Positions 4,451 through 64,000 of a stretch of DNA of 64,000 nucleotides are shown piece by piece. Origin of the DNA: an uncultured Candidatus Peribacteria bacterium (GTDB lineage Bacteria > Patescibacteriota > Gracilibacteria > Peribacterales > Peribacteraceae). The position numbers were made by a program, and so were the translations under genes. The first letter of the stretch is position 1, and each line of letters begins with the position of its first letter. A model generated the notes under the pieces. It saw nothing but the letters and a program-made list of their open reading frames with translations. It was not told the origin of the DNA and did not search any database. Location: contig CAYUVW010000002.1 in the NCBI GenBank assembly GCA_964448405.1, forward strand, positions 7,745 to 71,744. Reading direction: 5' to 3'.

Positions 4451-5182
4451 CTAGCGGATATCTTTATGTTTTTTGGTGGTCGGCTTTTTTAAAATTGCCT
4501 CCGACAGATAGTTTGCGGCGTACGTCGCACCGGTCTTAAAGAACCCTTCCGACTGCAAGCGACGAGCCGACGTAAAGACCCGGAACTTGGGGGAATACTT
4601 CACCGTACCGACTTGGAACAGGCGACGAGCGATGCTGGTGTCGTCGCCGTAGAACGAAATGTCGGTGTCGAACGCGCTGGCCTTGAGGAGCGCCTTGCGC
4701 TTCGCGACGAAGTTGCCGCCCACCACCATGTAACCCATGACGGACGATGTCGGCACGGCGAAGGCATCCCACCAGAAACTAACCCACTTCTGCTGCCACT
4801 CGGGTAGATCGTAGAAATCGTATGGCCCGCTCAGACAAACAAGGTCTGCGTCGCGCCTGAACTCGCGATTGATCATCTCGAACCAGCCCTTGGGTACCTT
4901 CGTATCGGCGTCCAGGTAGGCAAGTAAGTCTCCTTTGGCTTCGGTGAATCCTCGGTGACGCGCGGCATTCGTCCCCTTCTTGGATTCATGCACCACGCGC
5001 ACGCCCGAAAATTTCTTGGCGACCTTCGCGGTATTGTCGGTGCTCACGTTATCGACCACGATGATCTCGATGAGATTCTTGGGCTTCAGTGCAAGGATGC
5101 TCTTCAGACATACGCCAATGTACTTCTCCTCGTTATGCGCGGGGATGACGATGCTGATGGTTTGCGGCAAACGACGAATCAT
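4451..5182 (-). CDS. family 2 glycosyltransferase
   Basis: IVIPAHNEEKYIG, IIVVDNVSTDNT and YLDADT (DxD). Tandem paralogue of the next gene. Confidence 0.85.
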   Translation of the reverse strand: MIRRLPQTISIVIPAHNEEKYIGVCLKSILALKPKNLIEIIVVDNVSTDNTAKVAKKFSGVRVVHESKKGTNAARHRGFTEAKGDLLAYLDADTKVPKGWFEMINREFRRDADLVCLSGPYDFYDLPEWQQKWVSFWWDAFAVPTSSVMGYMVVGGNFVAKRKALLKASAFDTDISFYGDDTSIARRLFQVGTVKYSPKFRVFTSARRLQSEGFFKTGATYAANYLSEAILKKPTTKKHKDIR

Positions 5183-5187
5183 ACGGT

Positions 5188-5904
5188 TCAGCGGATATCG
5201 ATGTATTCCTTGGTGACGGGCTTATGGAGAATGGCTTCGGAAAAGAAGTTGGCCGCGTACACGGTGGCGATTTTGAACAAGCCTTCGGATTCCAAGCGTC
5301 GTGCGGAGGTGAAAATACGGAAGCGCTGCGAGAACTTCACTTTGCCGGCGGCGTGCAGGCGGCGTGCGATGTTGGTGTCTTCGCCGTAGAAAGCGATGCT
5401 GGTATCGAAGCCGCCGATCTTCACCAATGCGTCGCGTGTAGCTGCGAAATTACCACCTACGACCATGTAACCGGCGATCCAATACAGCGGCATGGCCAAA
5501 ATCGTCCACCAAATGTGGACCGCCAAGCGCTTCAGTCCATGCAAATCGTAGTAATCGTACGGACCACTCAGGCAGACCAGCTTGTCGTTGGCGGCGAATT
5601 CGGTATTGATGCGATCGAACCAGCCCTTGGGCACGCGGGTATCTGCGTCGATGTACGCAATGATATCGGCGGTGGCGGATTTCAGTCCGCACTCACGGGC
5701 ACACGTCAGGCCTTTGCGATCCTCACGCACGACACGCACGCCGGGATACGCTTTCGCAAGCTCGGCGGTACGGTCGCTGCTGGCATTGTCGATCACGATG
5801 ATCTCCGTCAGATTTTCGGGGCGATTGCGCACCGCACTCTCCAGACATGGACCGATGTACTTCTCTTCGTTGTAGGCCGGAATCACGAGACTGATGGTCT
5901 TCAT
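5188..5904 (-). CDS. family 2 glycosyltransferase (tandem paralogue)
   Basis: LVIPAYNEEKYIG, IIVIDNASSDRT and YIDADT. Collinear over its full length with 4451..5182. Confidence 0.85.
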   Translation of the reverse strand: MKTISLVIPAYNEEKYIGPCLESAVRNRPENLTEIIVIDNASSDRTAELAKAYPGVRVVREDRKGLTCARECGLKSATADIIAYIDADTRVPKGWFDRINTEFAANDKLVCLSGPYDYYDLHGLKRLAVHIWWTILAMPLYWIAGYMVVGGNFAATRDALVKIGGFDTSIAFYGEDTNIARRLHAAGKVKFSQRFRIFTSARRLESEGLFKIATVYAANFFSEAILHKPVTKEYIDIR

Positions 5905-7416: not shown

Positions 7417-10400
7417 TCAGACGATTTTCTCACAACGTGAGTTGATGACTTCGGCGACGATGGACGCAATGATGATCAGCCCTCCTCCGACGAAGAACAG
7501 CACGTTTGTGTTGATGGTGTGACGGAAGAACAACAACTCGAACAAGAACGCGATGAACGGCGCCAAATTCAGCATCATGAACGCCAGCAAGCCGTCGATG
7601 CGCTTGAATGCCTCGAACGTGAGCACCAATCCGACGAGAGTAATAACACCCACGCCGATATTGGTCACCCACTGATTCATGGTCAGATTGAAGGTGATGT
7701 CGAGACCGAAGAAGAGATTGCCACCCAGAATCATCGCAAGCGTAGCGGCTGCGATCCAGACGAAATGATGCGTGGCGAGCGAGATGGTATTGGTGGCCAC
7801 GCCGCTGTATTTCACGTAGTGAATGTTGCTCATCATGAAGGCAACGTCCGAAAACGCGATCATGAGCGCGAACAAGTCGCCAAGCGCGCCTTGAGCCGTA
7901 GTTTGGAAATCGTTGTACACCAGCATGGTTCCACCGAGCGCACTGAGGCCGAACAACATGAAAATCTGCTGAATGCTCTTGGGTGAATTCAGGTACGAAA
8001 TGCGGCGGCGCCAAACCAAGAACGCCAGCAGCAATGCGAATACCGGCGCGTAGCTGAGCACCAAGTTCACGTTGGTGGCGGTGGTGAACAGCAGGCTCTT
8101 GTGCAGGAAGTAGTTGTACGACAAGTTGGCGAAAACGATGATCCAGAAATAGCGATTGTAGGGGGTTTTGTACGCCAGTTTTTGGCCGGATTTGTAGAAC
8201 AAATTCAGGATGAAGATAGCCGCAAAGCCCGATATCGCTCCGGCCACGGCCCAAATATGCACACGCAAGAGCGGACTGAGGGTTTGAATCGACGTGTAGC
8301 GGATCAACACCGGTTCGATGCCCCAAATAAACACCGCGCCGAACCGCAACAGGTACCCCGTGATTTTTTGGCGCCTTGCATTCTTGATGCTCTTAGCTCC
8401 GGCGATTGTAAGTGCGGCGCTCGGCGCACGTCGGGGCTCCAACTCGAACAATGTGCGCACGAATCGGTACCCCAAGAACAGCATGGCGAACGTAAACAGG
8501 AACAACACCATGAGCAGCGGAACTTGGCCGGTAAGCACCGGCAACTTCCACATGACAAGCAGCACGCCGAATACGTTGAGAACGAATCCAAGGCCGAAAA
8601 ACCATTGCTCGCGACGCATGCTCAACACGTAATGCTGCAGCAGGGACAAGAAATAGTAGTTGGCACCCAAAATAGGAATGAGCGGCAACACATGCAGCAA
8701 GAACAGCGGCATGGACGGAACGCCGGCGAACGCCTTGTAGTACTGCGGCAAGAGCAGCACGTAGCCGACCAAAACGCCCAGCGCCACAAGGAACGACAAC
8801 GTCAGACCGGCTCGCTGATGCATGGACAGCATCGTTTGCACTTTGGAAATCCAATCTTGGCGCTCCAAAATGTCGATGAAGTCAGCGAAATGCAGGCGAT
8901 CAAGTGACGCACCGGACAGATAAATTTCGAACGTGTGCGTCGCAGCATCGAAACGAATGACCGTTCCCGTAATGCTCACATCCGCCTCTTGAATCAGCTG
9001 ATTCAGGCGAACTTGCACATCGCGCTGGCGATCGGAAGTACCCGATACGCACAAGCGGAAGTTATAGCCTTTGCGCTGCAACAAGCGAACGAACGGGAAT
9101 CGACGGTGCTCCGGATACAAGTAGAACACAATGTCGCGCGCGCGAAGCACGCCTTCGCCGATCATGGTGATGACATCCTCGAAATCGCGGCGACGGAAGT
9201 GATCTGCAACGTGCTGCTGCTTGGCTTTTGGCAAATCGCGTACAAGACCCTTTTTGTAGAAATCGAGTTCACGCTGCAGCAAATCCATGCCAAGCATGAT
9301 CTTCTCGGAACGGTCACGCTGCTTCAGTACGTCGACGATCATGGAGCGTGCCAATCGTGTCTTCACATATTTGAGCCAATCGAACGTAATCACTTCATGA
9401 TCCGCCATGGTCACGTACACGTCGTCATCGGGCTTCAGAATGTGCGATAGCGCCGCAGGTTGGCCATCGATGCTGATGTGCTCTGCATTGCCGGCTCGTT
9501 CGCGGTACAACGCATAGACGGCATCCAGCGCGGTGGAATCCTTCGGAATGGCAATGCGCTGGCGATCCACGCAGACGGACATTGTTTCCCGCAGAATGTC
9601 CGATTCCAACGCATCCCAGAACTCGCCGCTATTTTCACGTGTCTGCAAATCAATTTCCGCCGAACGCTGCAACCAGGAGAATTTCGGACCGACACCCGCG
9701 CCGCGAAACAAGAATGTGGTTACGCCGAACTGGGCCTGCTCGTGCATTTCCGCAGTGCGCAAACGAATGTCGATCACCACGCCGTCGGGCAGGGTGACGT
9801 GCGTGTGCAAGCTGCGGTAACCGGACTCCGCCGGTACCGCGATATAGTCGCGGAACTTGCCGCTGACCGGGCGATACAGCGTATGAATATGCTTCAGAAG
9901 CTGGTAGCACGCCTCTTCGCTTTTTACGATCACGACTACAGAAAACGCATCGCTGGCAGCCGGTTGCCACATGCGCTCGCGCATACGCTGCAGAAATTTC
10001 AACAAATCGCGCGGCTGCATTTCCAGCATCTCCAGTGCGTTGTGCTCATCTTCTGCTCGCAGTTGACGCTCAATGGATGGAAACAGCAGTTCGCCTTGGG
10101 CGCACTCTGCATCGCGCAGTTTTTTCGCACGCTCACCGTCGTCGTCGAACGCATACGGTACGCAGAAATCGGCAAACGTCTGGCGTACGTCGCGCATGCC
10201 CAAGTGCAATGCCAGCTTGTGATAGACGTTCAGCGTTTCCAGCGCAAAACGCTTGCGACGTTCGGGGCTGGGCAACAAGTCGATGGTGTAAATGTTGTGC
10301 AGGCGGTCGGCCAGCTTGATGATGGCCACCCGGATGTCGCGGCGCATGACGTCGAACAGCTTGCGCAGCGTTTCCGTCTTACGATCCAAGGGCAGATCGT

Positions 10401-10734
10401 GATCCAAATCGGCATTCGTGAATTTGGTGACCCCGTCCACAAGCAGCGCAACGTGCCTGCCAAAGCGACTGGTGATTTCATCTTTCTTGACCGGCGCATC
10501 TTCCAAAACGTCGTGCAACAAGGCTGCAATGACCGTATCGCGGTCGCCATGCCACTGGCCGATGATCTCGGCCACTTCAATGACATGGTTCACGTACGGC
10601 GAACCATCGTGACGCGTTTGTCCGGCATGCGCTTCGCAAGCCAGCTTGTACGCGTCGCGCACATCATGGAGGTGATTCTCGGAAAGGTATCCGAGAATGC
10701 TCTCCAGCCGAGAGAAATCATGAATGGAATGCAC
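7417..10734 (-). CDS. long RelA/SpoT homologue (HD hydrolase, synthetase-like, TGS, ACT-like) fused to a ~14-TM region including a DMT/EamA-like permease
   Basis: Single 1105-codon ORF with a GTG start. HD motifs RHDGSPYVNHVIEVA, HDVLED and IKLADRLHN. Synthetase-like DYIAVPAESGYRSLHTHV and IDIRLRTAEMHEQAQFG. TGS around aa 385-442. From about aa 643 (nt 8808 downward) continuous TM helices run to the C-terminus. Confidence 0.85.
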   Translation of the reverse strand: MHSIHDFSRLESILGYLSENHLHDVRDAYKLACEAHAGQTRHDGSPYVNHVIEVAEIIGQWHGDRDTVIAALLHDVLEDAPVKKDEITSRFGRHVALLVDGVTKFTNADLDHDLPLDRKTETLRKLFDVMRRDIRVAIIKLADRLHNIYTIDLLPSPERRKRFALETLNVYHKLALHLGMRDVRQTFADFCVPYAFDDDGERAKKLRDAECAQGELLFPSIERQLRAEDEHNALEMLEMQPRDLLKFLQRMRERMWQPAASDAFSVVVIVKSEEACYQLLKHIHTLYRPVSGKFRDYIAVPAESGYRSLHTHVTLPDGVVIDIRLRTAEMHEQAQFGVTTFLFRGAGVGPKFSWLQRSAEIDLQTRENSGEFWDALESDILRETMSVCVDRQRIAIPKDSTALDAVYALYRERAGNAEHISIDGQPAALSHILKPDDDVYVTMADHEVITFDWLKYVKTRLARSMIVDVLKQRDRSEKIMLGMDLLQRELDFYKKGLVRDLPKAKQQHVADHFRRRDFEDVITMIGEGVLRARDIVFYLYPEHRRFPFVRLLQRKGYNFRLCVSGTSDRQRDVQVRLNQLIQEADVSITGTVIRFDAATHTFEIYLSGASLDRLHFADFIDILERQDWISKVQTMLSMHQRAGLTLSFLVALGVLVGYVLLLPQYYKAFAGVPSMPLFLLHVLPLIPILGANYYFLSLLQHYVLSMRREQWFFGLGFVLNVFGVLLVMWKLPVLTGQVPLLMVLFLFTFAMLFLGYRFVRTLFELEPRRAPSAALTIAGAKSIKNARRQKITGYLLRFGAVFIWGIEPVLIRYTSIQTLSPLLRVHIWAVAGAISGFAAIFILNLFYKSGQKLAYKTPYNRYFWIIVFANLSYNYFLHKSLLFTTATNVNLVLSYAPVFALLLAFLVWRRRISYLNSPKSIQQIFMLFGLSALGGTMLVYNDFQTTAQGALGDLFALMIAFSDVAFMMSNIHYVKYSGVATNTISLATHHFVWIAAATLAMILGGNLFFGLDITFNLTMNQWVTNIGVGVITLVGLVLTFEAFKRIDGLLAFMMLNLAPFIAFLFELLFFRHTINTNVLFFVGGGLIIIASIVAEVINSRCEKIV

Positions 10735-15235: not shown

Positions 15236-17575
15236 TTACACCGAAAAATGCTTGCGAAGCGCTTCAAGCTGTTTCTCATTCAGGATCGTACGCAGTTCCA
15301 CGTCGGTTGCCGCACGCACGCCATCGACAGAACCAAAACGCTTCAGTAGCGCGGCTTTCAGCAATGGGCCGACTCCGGGAATCTCGTCCAATGCCGACGC
15401 AAACGTGGCCTTCGTCATGCGAGTTTTACGCTTCTCATTGGCGAACCGGTGAGATTCATCGCGAATGCGCTGCAACAGGAATTGGGCCGGGTCCTGCTTG
15501 GGAATGGGAATCGGCATCGAGTCACCGGGTACGAAAATCTCTTCTTCACGCTTGGCAATGGACGCCAACGGAACATGTGAAAGCTCCAGTTCGCACAGCA
15601 CGTCGTAGACCGCACCAAGCTGGCCTTTGCCGCCGTCAATAAGGAGGAGATTGGGCACCGACGTGAATGAATCATCGGGCTTTTCCTTCTTCACGTCGTA
15701 GGAAAGGATAATACGACGCTCCTGGCCGGGGTGCTTCTCGGCCAAGCCGTCGACGTATTCTTTGAGTGCTTCATGTCCTTCGATGACATACCGAAAACCA
15801 AGCTGTGCGTAGGATTCCTCCAGCGCCGGATCGACAACCGCGTACACCTTTCCTTTATCTTGGGTCGCCAGCAACGTGCGGATAAGTACCGTGGCAACCA
15901 GACGTGCACTCTCGTTCGCCGTCCACACCGTACGCAGCACACGCACCGACGGCGTGCACTCAAACAGCTGTGCCGTACCAACGATTTCCTCGCCGTGTCG
16001 GGCAACCGCAAAATTTTTGTAGTGGATGGTGCGGTCTTCCAGAGAATCAGCATGAGCAGCTGCGACTTCTTCCAGTGTTTTTTGCTCAGCCTTGCGAGCT
16101 TTGCCGATCTCGATCCCCTGCTTGGAAAGACGCGCGCGGTCGGATTTCAGATCGTAGGCCAGGTACTTCAGGCGACGACGCAGGACTTCTGCCAATGATT
16201 GATAATCGTCGATATCGCCCTTTTTCAGACTCTTAATGGTAAAGGAGCGGTAATGCTGCCGCTTGGGTTTGCCGCTCTCGAACACAACCATACTGCCCAC
16301 CGTGTCGGCGCCGCCCATGTGTGAAATATCGTAACCCTCAATGCGCTTCGGCGCTTCCGGTAAGCCGAGCAACTTCCGCAGTGATTCGACTGCTTCTTCG
16401 GATTTGCGCAGTTCGGCTTCCCACGCCGCAAACTGCTGACGTACTTTTTCATCGGCGTTCTTCTCGGCCATTTCCAATAATTTGGATTTCTTGCCGCGCT
16501 CGGGAATCCACAGCTTCACCGCCTTGCCACGACGTTCGCGCAACCACGTCTCCAACAACGTCGCTTCGGGAATCGGATCGCGAACGATGACGGTATCCGG
16601 AATATCCTGCGTGTCGGCATAGTATTGCGGCAGGAATTGCGCCATGGCTTCGGCGGCATTCTCCGCCTCTCCTTTCAGGGCGAAGCCCACCTGTTCAATG
16701 ACTTTGCCGTCGCGTTCACGCAGCAATACAACCTGAATCTTGCCCTGACGGAACGCGATGCCGAAGACGTCTGCATTTTCTCCCGATGTATCCGACACGA
16801 TCTGCCTGCTTTCCAAATCCGCAATGAATTTGAGTACGTCGCGCAGTCGAGCGGCGACCTCGAACTTCCTGTCCTTTGCCGCAGCGAACATTTTTTCTTC
16901 CGCTTTCTTTTTCACCGATTGCAAATTGCCGCGAAAGAACCGTTCAACTTCGCCGATGCGCTCTGCATACTCCGCTTGCGACAATGAGCCGATGCACAGG
17001 CCGCAGCACTTGCCGATCTGAAACTCCAAACAAGGAGTATCCAGCATCTTGGCGGCAGCCTGCGTCGTGTGATTCAGTGCATCGAGTGATTTGCGGCACG
17101 CACGGAATTTCAAAATGCCATCGAGCATATCCAGCGTGGCATTGGTAGAAGACGCGCCCAAGAACGGCCCGAAATACTTTGCTCCGTCTTCTTCCAGGCG
17201 CCGCACGACCTCGACACTCGGGTATGAATCCTGCACCGACAGGCGCACGTACACATATCCTTTGTCGTCCTTCAGCATGATGTTGTACTTCGGCTTCAGC
17301 TTCTTAATAAGGTTGGACTCCAACATGAACGCTTCCAACTCGCTGCGCACGATGGTGACGTCCACATCGGCGATCTGCTTCACCATAATGGCTTTCCACG
17401 GGTCCAATTTGGCGCCGGGCGCCACGTAACTCCGCAGACGGTTGCGGATGTTCTTGGCTTTGCCGACGTACATCACGTTGCCTTCTTTATCGAGCCAGCG
17501 GTACACGCCGGGCTCGGTAGAGGCAGCACCGATGCGTCGGCGCAGCCTGGCCATGGGATTATCGGACTCCGCCAT
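15236..17575 (-). CDS. uvrC: excinuclease ABC subunit C with a ~170-aa internal insertion
   Basis: GIY-YIG (PGVYRWLDKEGNVMYVGKAKNIRNRLRSY), UVR (FEVAARLRDVLKFI), endonuclease domain (IEGYDISH ... LLLIDGGKGQL) and HhH2 (IPGVGPLLKAALLKRFGS). 779 aa, versus about 600 for a typical UvrC. Confidence 0.9.
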   Translation of the reverse strand: MAESDNPMARLRRRIGAASTEPGVYRWLDKEGNVMYVGKAKNIRNRLRSYVAPGAKLDPWKAIMVKQIADVDVTIVRSELEAFMLESNLIKKLKPKYNIMLKDDKGYVYVRLSVQDSYPSVEVVRRLEEDGAKYFGPFLGASSTNATLDMLDGILKFRACRKSLDALNHTTQAAAKMLDTPCLEFQIGKCCGLCIGSLSQAEYAERIGEVERFFRGNLQSVKKKAEEKMFAAAKDRKFEVAARLRDVLKFIADLESRQIVSDTSGENADVFGIAFRQGKIQVVLLRERDGKVIEQVGFALKGEAENAAEAMAQFLPQYYADTQDIPDTVIVRDPIPEATLLETWLRERRGKAVKLWIPERGKKSKLLEMAEKNADEKVRQQFAAWEAELRKSEEAVESLRKLLGLPEAPKRIEGYDISHMGGADTVGSMVVFESGKPKRQHYRSFTIKSLKKGDIDDYQSLAEVLRRRLKYLAYDLKSDRARLSKQGIEIGKARKAEQKTLEEVAAAHADSLEDRTIHYKNFAVARHGEEIVGTAQLFECTPSVRVLRTVWTANESARLVATVLIRTLLATQDKGKVYAVVDPALEESYAQLGFRYVIEGHEALKEYVDGLAEKHPGQERRIILSYDVKKEKPDDSFTSVPNLLLIDGGKGQLGAVYDVLCELELSHVPLASIAKREEEIFVPGDSMPIPIPKQDPAQFLLQRIRDESHRFANEKRKTRMTKATFASALDEIPGVGPLLKAALLKRFGSVDGVRAATDVELRTILNEKQLEALRKHFSV

Positions 17576-19190: not shown

Positions 19191-19210
19191 TCCCACTCAC
19201 ACTGATTCTG

Positions 19211-19235
19211 AAAACGGCCGAAAGGCCGTTTTTTT
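19211..19235 (+). terminator. intrinsic terminator after L25
   Basis: AAAACGGCC-GAAA-GGCCGTTTT followed by a T-run. Confidence 0.8.
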
Positions 19236-19266
19236 GTGCTGTCGTTCAGATGTTGTGCGCTACCCT

Positions 19267-19486
19267 GAGGTTTCCGTTTTCTTCGGAGCTTGGGCACGGT
19301 GGGCTTGTCGCGCCTGATCCGGTGCCGTCACGCTTCCGCCGAAGCAACCCGTAAAAAAGTCCGCCTGTTCGAGCTCGCCGCAGCGAGCGAGTTCGGACTT
19401 TTAGGGTTGTGAGGCGCGTGAAGCGTAGGCCAGCCGGAGCACCGCGCGACGTTTTTTGCTCAACTTTTTTCTAAAAAAAGTGGAAG
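19267..19486 (+). repeat. copy 1 of a 220-nt structured intergenic element (second copy at 63670-63889)
   Basis: Collinear with 63670-63889 in the same orientation. The core imperfect hairpin is 19330-19426, followed by T6 (19452-19457) and the A/T palindrome ACTTTTTT-CTA-AAAAAAGT. Confidence 0.8.
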
Positions 19487-19573
19487 AACAAACGCTCTCG
19501 CGGCGATTATGGAATCGCCGCTACGAGAAGTATTGGGCGAAATTGGCTAGGATTCGCCGGAGTCCTGGAGTCG

Positions 19574-19599
19574 AAAAAGAGGCCACCCGGCCTCTTTTT
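19574..19599. terminator. bidirectional intrinsic terminator (serves hpf)
   Basis: AAAAAGAGGCC-ACCC-GGCCTCTTTTT, with A- and T-runs on either side. Confidence 0.8.
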
Positions 19600-19618: not shown

Positions 19619-19981
19619 TTATATCTGACTCATCTTGCCCCCCTTGCGCTTCATTTTGTGCGCACGTTCGCGACCGGTGTGCTTTTCTTTGTAGCGCTTG
19701 ATCTGCGACTCGAGTTTTTCGATGCAGCTGTCGACGGCGAGCAAAGCCTCGAACTTGCGGGACTCGGCACGCAGAACGGTACCCGGCAGGTGCACGGTGA
19801 TCATCACTTTCACCTGATCGCGGCTCTTTTTCGTGTCGCGGCCTTCGGCCTCAACGCGAATGGAGGAGCCTTCGTCCTTCAGACGCTTGCAGTACGTTGC
19901 AAGCTTGCCGATCTTTTTGGCTAACAGAAGCAGGTCTTTGTCGTCGTAACGGACACCTTTTTCGAAGTGTTCAACATGCAT
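19619..19981 (-). CDS. hpf: ribosome hibernation promoting factor / RaiA family (short form)
   Basis: 120 aa from ATG 19981 (MHVEHFEKG). The layout KVMITVHLPGTVLRAESRKFEALLAVDSCIEKLESQIKRYKEK is typical of the sigma-54 modulation protein/S30EA fold. Confidence 0.7.
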   Translation of the reverse strand: MHVEHFEKGVRYDDKDLLLLAKKIGKLATYCKRLKDEGSSIRVEAEGRDTKKSRDQVKVMITVHLPGTVLRAESRKFEALLAVDSCIEKLESQIKRYKEKHTGRERAHKMKRKGGKMSQI

Positions 19982-26199: not shown

Positions 26200-26240
26200 G
26201 TCCTTATTGTCCAACTGTCGAAGATTTTGCGCAACCCACA

Positions 26241-26264
26241 AAAAAACCGCCCGAAGGCGGTTTT
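26241..26264 (-). terminator. intrinsic terminator after the eRF1-like gene
   Basis: Minus strand reads AAAACCGCC-TTCG-GGCGGTTTTTTT. Confidence 0.75.
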
Positions 26265-26281
26265 CAGAATCGGTATGGAGA

Positions 26282-62623: not shown

Positions 62624-62968
62624 ATGGACTCGCTCTACATCCAAGACTTGGAGGTATGGACGCGCATCGGCGTGCCGAATGAGGAACGCGCAAACGAACA
62701 GCGTTTACTCGTCTCCATAGAATTGTTCCTCGACCTTGCTCCGGCAGCCAAAACCGATGACGTCTCGAAGAGCATTGATTACGCACTGGTTGCATCCGAC
62801 GTTCGCGCATTGGCCGGCACGAGTCGTAAAACTCTGGAACGCTTCGCGGAAGACACTGCCACCATGATCCTGAAAACCTACGCACCGGCCGGCGGCGTGA
62901 AGGTCAGCATCCAAAAATTTATTTTGCCCGACACGAAAGCCGTCTGCCTCACCATCTTCCGCTCATGA
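62624..62968 (+). CDS. folB: dihydroneopterin aldolase
   Basis: LEVWTRIGVPNEERANEQRLLVSIEL ... DYALV. Confidence 0.8.
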   Translation: MDSLYIQDLEVWTRIGVPNEERANEQRLLVSIELFLDLAPAAKTDDVSKSIDYALVASDVRALAGTSRKTLERFAEDTATMILKTYAPAGGVKVSIQKFILPDTKAVCLTIFRS

Positions 62969-63447
62969 AAGCTTACATTGGCATTGGCTCGAACATTCTG
63001 CCCGAAGCAAACTTGGTGGCGGCAGCCGATTTGCTGCGCGAAGAATGGCCCGATGTCCGCTTCTCGCACGTCTACCGCTCCAAGGCACTCGAACAGGCCA
63101 ACCAAGCCGATTTCTTGAACGCGGTGGCCGAAGTGGAGGCCGACCGCGACGAACACAGCCTGCACGGCAAGTTGAAACAACTGGAAGAATGCCTCGGGAA
63201 GGCGATCAAGGAGCGCTTTGGGCCGCGGACCATAGATTTGGACCTGTTACTGTACGGAGATCTGGTCCAGAACACACAGGGGCTCATTCTCCCCCACCCG
63301 CGCATGCACCGTCGTCGGTTCGTTCTGCAGCCGATGTGTGAATTGATTCCGTTGCAACGCATGCACCCCCGCTTTCGCATCGAATGGCTGGAGCTGCTGA
63401 AGAAGACCGAGGATCAGGAGTGTGAGCGGATAAAACTGAAATTATAA
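62965..63447 (+). CDS. folK: 2-amino-4-hydroxy-6-hydroxymethyldihydropteridine diphosphokinase
   Basis: AYIGIGSN, FLNAV, GPRTIDLDLLLYG and LILPHPRMHRRRFVLQPMCEL. ATGA overlap with folB. Confidence 0.85.
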   Translation: MKAYIGIGSNILPEANLVAAADLLREEWPDVRFSHVYRSKALEQANQADFLNAVAEVEADRDEHSLHGKLKQLEECLGKAIKERFGPRTIDLDLLLYGDLVQNTQGLILPHPRMHRRRFVLQPMCELIPLQRMHPRFRIEWLELLKKTEDQECERIKLKL

Positions 63448-63669
63448 TTATCCTCATTCGATCCTGGTAACCGCCAAGGATTCTTCCTCGGAGGACCAGG
63501 GGACCTCCGCGGTCCCCTAGGCCCTCCGAACCTCCCTTACCCTCCCTGTGTAACCGAATGGACGCAATCGTCTGGCTGCTTCTTCTGCGTGAGGAATCAG
63601 CTCTTTGAAACGGCCAAAGGTTCTGCAGTACTACGGGCCCTGAGACGGCGTGAGCAGGTTACTTCCCCC

Positions 63670-63889
63670 GAGGTTGTCGGCTTCTTCGGAGGATGGACAC
63701 GGGATGGAGTGTCGCGCATCGGGCCGGTGCCGTCGCGCTCCCGCCGAAGCAGCCCGTGAAAAAAGTCCGCCTGTTTGAGCTCGCAGCAGCGAGCGAGTTC
63801 GGACTTTTAGGGCTGTGAGGCGCGTGGAGCGCAGGCCAGCCGGACCGCCGCGCGACGTTTTTCCTCCACTTTTTTAAAAAAGTGGAAAG
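63670..63889 (+). repeat. copy 2 of the 220-nt structured intergenic element
   Basis: Collinear with 19267-19486. Core hairpin 63735-63832, T5 at 63858-63862 and the perfect palindrome CCACTTTTTTAAAAAAGTGG. Confidence 0.8.
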
Positions 63890-63960
63890 GAACCATCCAT
63901 GATTCAAGTCGAGTATCACCCAGCCCAAAAGAACAAAATTTCCTGTATACTTGCCCCCTC

Positions 63961-64000
63961 ATGGAAAACCTCTTCACCCAACTGCTCAAGAACATCGGCG
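63961..64000 (+). CDS. start of an unidentified gene (3' end outside window)
   Basis: The ATG at 63961 opens MENLFTQLLKNIG and runs to the window edge. Confidence 0.3.
   Translation, partial: MENLFTQLLKNIG

Follow-up and report, generated by a model that had tools for sequence, protein, structure and literature searches.

The two similar intergenic elements in the window (the whole stretch of DNA that we analysed, 64,000 nucleotides long) are, with a probability that we put at roughly 60%, members of a dispersed, non-coding, nested-palindromic repeat family of a narrow clade of Candidatus Peribacteria (CPR). We read the element most readily as a lineage-specific palindromic repeat of intergenic regions, of the MITE/ERIC type. 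Intergenic spacers, most of them between convergent genes, gain and lose units, which can face either way and mark rearrangement breakpoints; deletions and insertions that follow the symmetry of the hairpin have reduced some units and enlarged others. The original prediction had described a two-copy element and had taken it for an independent unit, and neither description survives: related Peribacteria assemblies carry further copies at other loci, and the unit is not stably placed, the copy between folK and folE being a lineage-specific insertion and the content of the spacer after the L25 gene differing among relatives.

Architecture of the repeat unit

Copy 1 (19262-19494) and copy 2 (63666-63897) are about 85% identical over 226 nt (BLAST, E ~1e-63 to 1e-65), and a MAFFT alignment agrees with the earlier description of a collinear pair in the same orientation. 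They form direct repeats 44.4 kb apart and share a gap-free core of 117 nt (19353-19469 and 63759-63875) that is 89% identical. A family profile finds the element at exactly these two places within the 64 kb and detects no partial copies there. Related sequences that we fetched are cited below by their L numbers.

The full unit, about 230 nt long, consists of a 5' module (about 45 nt), a long hairpin (H1), a T-run, and an A/T-rich second hairpin (H2). All coordinates refer to the + strand. In copy 1, the 5' module (CCCTGAGG...TTCTTCGGAG...TGGGCACGG...) occupies 19262-19306 and begins where homology between paralogs begins; its motif TGGRCACGG is present in every full copy, including the diverged copy L034 and the inverted copy L033. 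H1 follows at 19307-19450, as defined by minimum-free-energy (MFE) folds, a consensus fold, covariation counts and a table of the individual differences. It is closed by GTCGCGC (19307-13) and GCGCGAC (19444-50) and has the apex loop CGCA near 19378-81. The 97-nt hairpin proposed earlier is thus real as a core, but the whole imperfect hairpin is longer, at about 144 nt.

Directly 3' of H1, the sequence continues with a G and six T (19451-19457), so that on the + strand H1 and the T-run of copy 1 are laid out like an intrinsic terminator. The motif GCGCGAC-N-TTTTT recurs in copy 2, L006, L011, L012 and L033, in each case as in copy 1 with G at the variable position and a run of five or six T, and L034 carries the variant ACGCGACTGTTTTT. 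Our simple terminator scanner skips stems as long as H1. Judging from this arrangement, the hairpin and T-run probably work as an RNA terminator. The unit resembles intrinsic (Rho-independent) terminators in that a G+C-rich closing stem is followed directly by 5-6 T on the same strand, but its stem-loop measures 144 nt against the usual 10-30 nt, copy 1 lies behind the normal terminator of the upstream gene, and the T-run is also part of the conserved H2.

H2 of copy 1 is an A/T-rich imperfect palindrome of 45 nt (19450-19494; CGTTTTTTGCTCAACTTTTTT / AAAAAAGTGGAAGAACAAACG), with an inverted repeat that is 81% complementary, a T-run that pairs with the GAAGAAC tail, and the core CAAC-T6-CTA-A7-GTGG (19461-83). 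The H2 motif recurs in all copies, and in the MFE fold of the L033 version GUUUUUU pairs with AAGAAAC. An A/T palindrome had been noted after the hairpin; it is present, but because it belongs to the 45-nt H2, the unit extends further, from about 19262 to 19494. Copy 2 has the same parts, with the 5' module at 63666-63710, H1 at 63711-63856 (GTCGCGC at 63711-17, GCGCGAC at 63850-56, apex loop AGCA), and a G with five T plus H2 at 63857-63897, where CCAC-T6-A6-GTGG occupies 63866-85 and is followed by the tail GAAAGGAAC.

The element has no conserved open reading frame. A small peptide encoded by a 41-aa frame in copy 2 (63693-63818) was considered and rejected: the C-terminal 19 residues are kept in copy 1, but a 1-nt indel shifts the frame there and no start is conserved. 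A protein search of a set of 5.8 billion sequences with the six translated frames of both copies also returned nothing, that is, no spurious frames annotated over other copies.

Two further features lie close to the unit. The sequence AAACGGCC-AAAGG occurs about 50 nt upstream of both copies; we rejected a homology reaching through it into the L25 terminator as marginal, since 18 of 1000 shuffles score as well. A strong hairpin at 19499-19529 (CTCGCGGCGATT ATGG AATCGCCGC TA CGAG) stands between copy 1 and the next terminator and is absent from the relatives L034 and L037; a small transcript and a further palindromic insertion are both possible explanations of it.

Conservation of the fold

The copies differ at nine places within the 97-nt core, and all nine differences are neutral for the + strand fold. 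Three are compensated pairs (19330/19426, 19335/19421 and 19347/19407), a further change at 19370 turns a C-G pair into U-G, the change at 19379 converts the apical loop CGCA to AGCA, and a 1-nt indel falls inside an internal loop. These results agree in full with the original prediction of three pairing-preserving double substitutions among about nine changes, as do the stems themselves: ACGCTTC (19330-36) with GAAGCGT (19420-26) has the counterpart GCGCTCC/GGAGCGC in copy 2, and CAACCC/GGGTTG has the counterpart CAGCCC/GGGCTG. A fourth compensated swap, at 19315/19441, lies in the longer hairpin beyond the core.

The same pattern extends to more distant copies. RNAalifold, applied to five aligned long copies including the ~70%-identical L034, predicts a consensus of 63 pairs in which 94.8% of all cells are paired. 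Both sides have changed in 12 of the 63 pairs, against 5.3 +/- 1.5 in column shuffles, and none of 500 shuffles reaches 12; slid controls give 0-2 such pairs. L034, which occupies the same site as copy 1, keeps the fold through many double changes. The + strand folds of copies 1 and 2 have z-scores of -3.3 and -4.7, respectively, and in copy 1, copy 2 and L034 the + strand, which also carries the T-run, folds 10-14 kcal/mol more stably than the - strand. Each copy contains 4-6 G-U pairs vs 0-2 A-C mismatches, a count biased to the + strand, since that is the strand used for predicting the structure.

The unpaired columns are as conserved as the paired ones, and no alignment to the window is possible for the spacer around the L034 copy, from which it follows that either the entire unit is under constraint or it is younger than the sequence around it. 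A functional RNA and a constrained repeat would account equally well for this pattern of conservation. Selection on the fold, as originally argued, is supported in that the further copies preserve pairing and covariation is strong. The hairpin is dispensable in some lineages. Since the further copies keep pairing, selection on the fold or a mechanism that corrects one hairpin arm remains the best account of the paired swaps.

Both could operate in the mechanism that we propose. The family would spread by transposition supplied in trans or by recombination between copies. In a + strand transcript, the hairpin and U-run would form an intrinsic terminator or an RNA-stabilising 3' structure, and such a role may keep the stem under selection and so give rise to the compensated pairs and G-U wobbles. 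Template switching at quasi-palindromes is a known bacterial mutation process; by correcting one arm against the other, it may add to the paired changes.

The strong covariation and the more stable + strand fold could also be expected of a multi-copy family of structured small RNA genes, whether sibling sRNAs or the RNA of a ribonucleoprotein, in which the 5' module would be the functional part and the hairpin with its U-run the gene's own terminator, with a stem free to vary in length. The T-run directly after the stem in nearly all copies, the position of copy 1 between two independent terminators, and the retention of TGGRCACGG and several internal-loop sequences in L034, where the flanking spacer is unalignable, are all consistent with such genes, and L033, in its short form with 5' module, 36-nt hairpin and U-run, is built like a classic sRNA. 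Nonetheless, we consider this explanation unlikely. There is no conserved promoter: homology between paralogs starts only ~30 nt before TGGRCACGG, the flanks upstream are unrelated, and a promoter scan of the + strand upstream of the 5' module found nothing. The two closest relatives have a compact operon spacer where the element has been inserted, L038 lacks the motif and the hairpin altogether, and the conserved H2 lies beyond the U-run, outside any terminated transcript.

Nor does the element match an Rfam family. At the gathering threshold, a search of the whole window and five related loci returned two tRNAs only, and a permissive search gave nothing meaningful around copy 1 (E values up to 10) or copy 2 (up to 1). 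The original prediction had found no resemblance to RNase P, SRP, tmRNA or 6S RNA; the Rfam search supports it on all four and likewise gives no match to the raiA motif, THF or THF-II, group II intron domains or HEARO.

Repeat and RNA might also be combined in a mobile RNA module, a self-spreading cassette whose + strand transcript has a selected three-hairpin structure in which the 5' TGGRCACGG module, the long stem and the A/T hairpin that sequesters the U-run would each be functional. Such a module could install terminators in a streamlined CPR genome, or it could be the RNA component or the end of a hitherto undescribed single-strand transposition system. We hold this possibility tentatively, at about the same low level of confidence as the small RNA genes. 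If it were true, the covariation would go beyond upkeep of the hairpin and reflect selection on an RNA with a part in its own propagation or in the expression of host genes. The case also carries a warning: an RNA gene cannot be identified from covariation alone.

Gene context, gain and loss

Copy 1 lies between the L25 gene (18474-19190, + strand) and the convergent gene for the hibernation factor HPF (19619-19981, - strand), which was identified by the Pfam domain Ribosomal_S30AE. The intrinsic terminator of L25 (19211-19235, + strand), which is conserved in L25 orthologs, ends 26 nt upstream of copy 1, and on the other side a terminator hairpin recognisable from its sequence stands at 19574-19599, downstream of the convergent HPF gene; both flanks are as they had been described. 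Copy 2 sits in a folB-folK-folE cluster, between folK (62965-63447) and folE, whose ATG at 63961 is shown by the contig L005.

Comparison with relatives identifies copy 2 as part of an insertion. The spacer between folK and the next gene is 513 nt long in the window vs 27 nt in L043/L044 and 43 nt in L046, which represent the two closest relatives (folK 75% and 86% identical) and both lack the element there. These lengths mark ~495 nt (63448-63942) as a lineage-specific insertion between folK and folE. Upstream of copy 2, the insertion includes 218 nt (63448-63665, + strand) that the relatives lack and that has no second copy elsewhere among the fetched sequences by BLAST; this segment contains an imperfect palindrome of its own, 43 nt long, at 63488-63529. 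The left arm of this palindrome, TTCTTCCTCGGAGG, resembles the 5' module of the unit, and several contigs end at 63505-63541. Downstream of copy 2, the remainder of the insertion spans 63898-63942 (+ strand), and the sequence becomes homologous to the relatives again at CTGTATACTT (63943-52), shortly ahead of the folE ATG.

Within 63943-63963, CTGTATACTT provides an extended -10-like box, TGTATACT, 8 nt before the folE ATG and conserved in L043. Its position suggests that folE has its own promoter, with a leader that is very short or absent. This putative promoter would explain why an insertion resembling a terminator is tolerated upstream of folE.

The location of copy 2 upstream of folE in the folate cluster, and of copy 1 beside L25 and HPF, might suggest a cis-regulatory leader, either a riboswitch or an attenuator, acting on folE or on ribosome-related genes. 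This idea is already contradicted by the gene contexts, and we give it almost no weight. Copy 1 has no downstream gene on its own strand, other copies flank unrelated genes, and relatives run from folK to folE across a spacer of 27 nt and keep the TGTATACTT box just before folE. In addition, neither THF, THF-II (the folE motif) nor the raiA motif matched, even at permissive E values (up to 10 around copy 1, up to 1 around copy 2).

The spacer after L25 varies as well. The unit is in the + orientation in the window and in L034, which has a full unit, and in the - orientation in L033, L037 and L038. L033 carries an inverted unit with a 36-nt hairpin, L037 an inverted degenerate unit, and L038 an inverted remnant with its 5' end fused straight to the 3' tail, the motif and the hairpin having been deleted. 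A more distant relative (L25 66% identical) has an L25-HPF spacer of 85 nt and no element. We rejected the orientation of the unit relative to the upstream gene as a clue; it is uninformative because most of the sites are spacers between convergent genes.

Over all copies, the hairpin measures 0 nt in L006, 36 nt in L033, ~144 nt in the window and L034, and 175 nt in L011. At the folK locus, L006 is a variant at strain level (97% identity over 1.7 kb); it reads GTCGCGC|GAC, lacks an inner hairpin and after that runs on into unrelated sequence. The excess length of L011 is a palindromic insert of 29 nt flanked by a duplication of GGCCAGCC. In detail, the insert ACGACAGATCGCGATCTGCGT and the duplicated GGCCAGCC lie at L011 5929-5957, on the 3' arm of the long hairpin, where they form a side branch.

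Other loci, rearrangement breakpoints and contig ends

The unit occurs in at least five distinct flank contexts. L011 and L012, both from the MAG CAYWJU01, carry copies upstream of purP and before a convergent gene, respectively. L004 is 99% identical to the window up to ~63892 and then continues into an EF-G-like gene instead of folE. L037 has a second copy, at the contig end after a PD-(D/E)XK gene, where the window has none. The organism is a Candidatus Peribacteria (CPR) bacterium; a 20-mer from the hairpin matches one species representative, which is a Candidatus Peribacteria MAG, and the L25 and folK homologs carry the source names Peribacteria or Peribacteraceae. A scan of viral contigs gave no match to the element, and a pattern scan of metagenomes with the 5' motif TTCTTCGGAGNNTGGRCACGG gave ten chance matches and zero real copies.

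In L033 and L038 the element lies between L25 and ftsZ rather than HPF. The same two close relatives have a convergent ftsZ after L25 (L033 10715-11047, L038 1049-1823) and not the hibernation factor gene, and the exchange of an L25-HPF for an L25-ftsZ neighbourhood therefore indicates a rearrangement breakpoint at the repeat element.

Metagenome contigs from several samples (Logan, JGI) repeatedly end inside the element. Many end at window position 19400, and one that arrives from the opposite side ends at 19409. A break at 19400 would be the fork point of a k=31 assembly graph if a copy like that of L011 were present, and some of the breaks could reflect coexisting strains rather than paralogs. 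Separately, one JGI contig (L031 1684-1738) follows copy 1 up to TTCTTCGGAGCTTG and then departs into unrelated A/T-rich sequence, which is either a chimeric assembly or another breakpoint, within the 5' module.

The coincidence of rearrangement breakpoints with the element is also what a DNA-level site might produce, for instance a protein-binding palindrome, a cruciform, a site of recombination, or direct repeats at either end of a 44-kb island. Such a site would accord with the A/T palindrome CCAC-T6-A6-GTGG, which is the most widely kept piece of the unit and persists even in the degenerate L037 copies, and the two window copies are direct repeats at a distance of 44.4 kb. However, the intervening 44 kb hold housekeeping genes (tRNA-Glu, SecDF, folB/folK, metal transporters, a two-component system) with uniform composition throughout, further copies exist elsewhere, and the G-U wobbles and the excess stability of the + strand point to RNA and not to duplex DNA. 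We judge a DNA-level site to be very unlikely. Further candidates were dropped on context: attL/attR sites of a 44-kb island, integron attC sites, CRISPR repeats, and a template and variable repeat pair of a diversity-generating retroelement. The element is non-coding, neither cas genes nor a reverse transcriptase are present, the interval contains housekeeping genes, and there are copies elsewhere.

Mobility and comparison with known repeat families

The original prediction had found no transposase, integrase or CRISPR-associated gene next to the element, and we can extend this to the 30 open reading frames of the window and to the Pfam lists of the related loci, in which there is none. More broadly, the 64-kb window and ~200 kb of fetched loci showed neither a mobilising or recombinase gene nor an autonomous relative sharing the ends of the unit. 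BLAST searches of plasmids and phages gave no match.

In five copies, the left 75 nt match the reverse complement of the right 75 nt no better than shuffled sequences do, and an apparent TTCTTC/GAAGAA match between the ends is explained by the internal palindrome of H2. No direct repeat that could be a target duplication was seen at the junctions of copies 1 and 2, L011/L012, L033 or L034, a comparison made where no empty and filled site can be aligned exactly. The copies are small, non-coding, dispersed and polymorphic for insertion, as those of MITEs are; membership among classical cut-and-paste MITEs fails on the terminal inverted repeats, which are at chance level, and no target duplication was recognised.

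Elements of the IS200/IS605 and REP/RAYT types have subterminal hairpins, lack terminal inverted repeats and target duplications, and insert beside a short target word. The unit could thus be a non-autonomous derivative of a single-strand transposon of either type, and its structured 3' part could descend from a transposon-end RNA. Besides the lack of significant terminal inverted repeats and of a visible target duplication, the hairpin-rich ends, the insertion polymorphism and the occurrence in both orientations are in keeping with such an origin, as is a YYAC word directly before CCTGAGG at three of four left junctions (CTAC, TCAC, TTAC). Yet the AC before CCTGAGG may belong to the element itself, the Pfam lists of the fetched sequences contain no TnpA, TnpB, IscB or RAYT gene, and the one RNA family of this kind in Rfam (HEARO) gave no match. 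Weighing these comparisons, we regard descent from a single-strand transposon as improbable.

Among hairpin-based repeats, REPs are 20-40 nt long, have a GTAG head and are accompanied by a RAYT gene. The Peribacteria unit is like REP/BIME and other IS200/IS605-derived palindrome-associated elements in being built on hairpins without terminal inverted repeats or target duplication and in its frequent position at the 3' ends of genes. It differs in its hairpin of 144 nt, which is several times longer, and in showing no GTAG head, RAYT gene or Y1 transposase match.

The Correia elements of Neisseria (NEMIS/CREE) and MITEs such as RUP, BOX and Nezha offer another parallel, as small, dispersed, non-autonomous repeats that form long hairpins when transcribed, can act as terminators or processing sites (a role that is predicted for the Peribacteria unit), and accompany genome rearrangements. 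Clear terminal inverted repeats and a target duplication (TA in the case of Correia) characterise both Correia elements and classical MITEs, whereas the terminal complementarity of the Peribacteria unit is at chance level and no duplication is seen.

The unit also resembles the ERIC or IRU elements of Enterobacteria, which are intergenic imperfect palindromes of 127 bp. They occur in either orientation, differ in presence and absence between related genomes, exist in size versions produced by internal deletion and insertion, and carry compensated stem substitutions. The Peribacteria unit, too, is a non-coding intergenic imperfect palindrome of 100-250 nt that is found in either orientation and is polymorphic for presence and absence, and it has both a size series (0, 36, 144 and 175 nt) and compensated stem changes. 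In contrast, the two share no sequence similarity and belong to different phyla, which excludes membership by sequence, and the Peribacteria unit consists of three modules (the 5' module, the long hairpin with its T-run, and the A/T hairpin) rather than a single palindrome.

Implications for CPR genomes

CPR genomes (~1.2 Mb) are usually portrayed as streamlined and poor in mobile DNA. A full-text literature search found no paper that links MITEs with CPR genomes beyond one incidental mention, and the paper on complete Peribacteria genomes mentions no repeats other than a single direct repeat region and short repeats close to the replication origin. Dispersed repeats in CPR bacteria are almost undescribed. 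A family that breaks metagenome assemblies and marks points of rearrangement bears on the quality of MAGs. It also splits a folate operon with a terminator-like hairpin, and it is a clean natural example of compensated changes maintaining a long hairpin, yet lineages that lose the hairpin survive.

Other features of the window

Several observations concern sequences apart from the repeat. The intrinsic terminators at 19198-19238 and 26237-26277 share 41 nt at 80% identity in inverted orientation, and because the shared sequence includes the flanks (TTCTGAAAAC...GTTTTTTTGTG), the similarity exceeds the stem-loops. The UvrC gene at 15236-17575 (- strand) encodes 779 aa and appears to contain an inserted segment resembling a GNAT acetyltransferase; the Pfam list for its ortholog in L039 likewise places acetyltransferase domains inside the protein. 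At 7417-10734 (- strand), a RelA/SpoT-type protein of 1105 aa has an EamA-type membrane domain according to the Pfam list for contig L023. Finally, the adjacent paralogous genes at 4451-5182 and 5188-5904 (- strand; repeat families D2/D3) are ~71-72% identical in DNA sequence and represent a tandem duplication.
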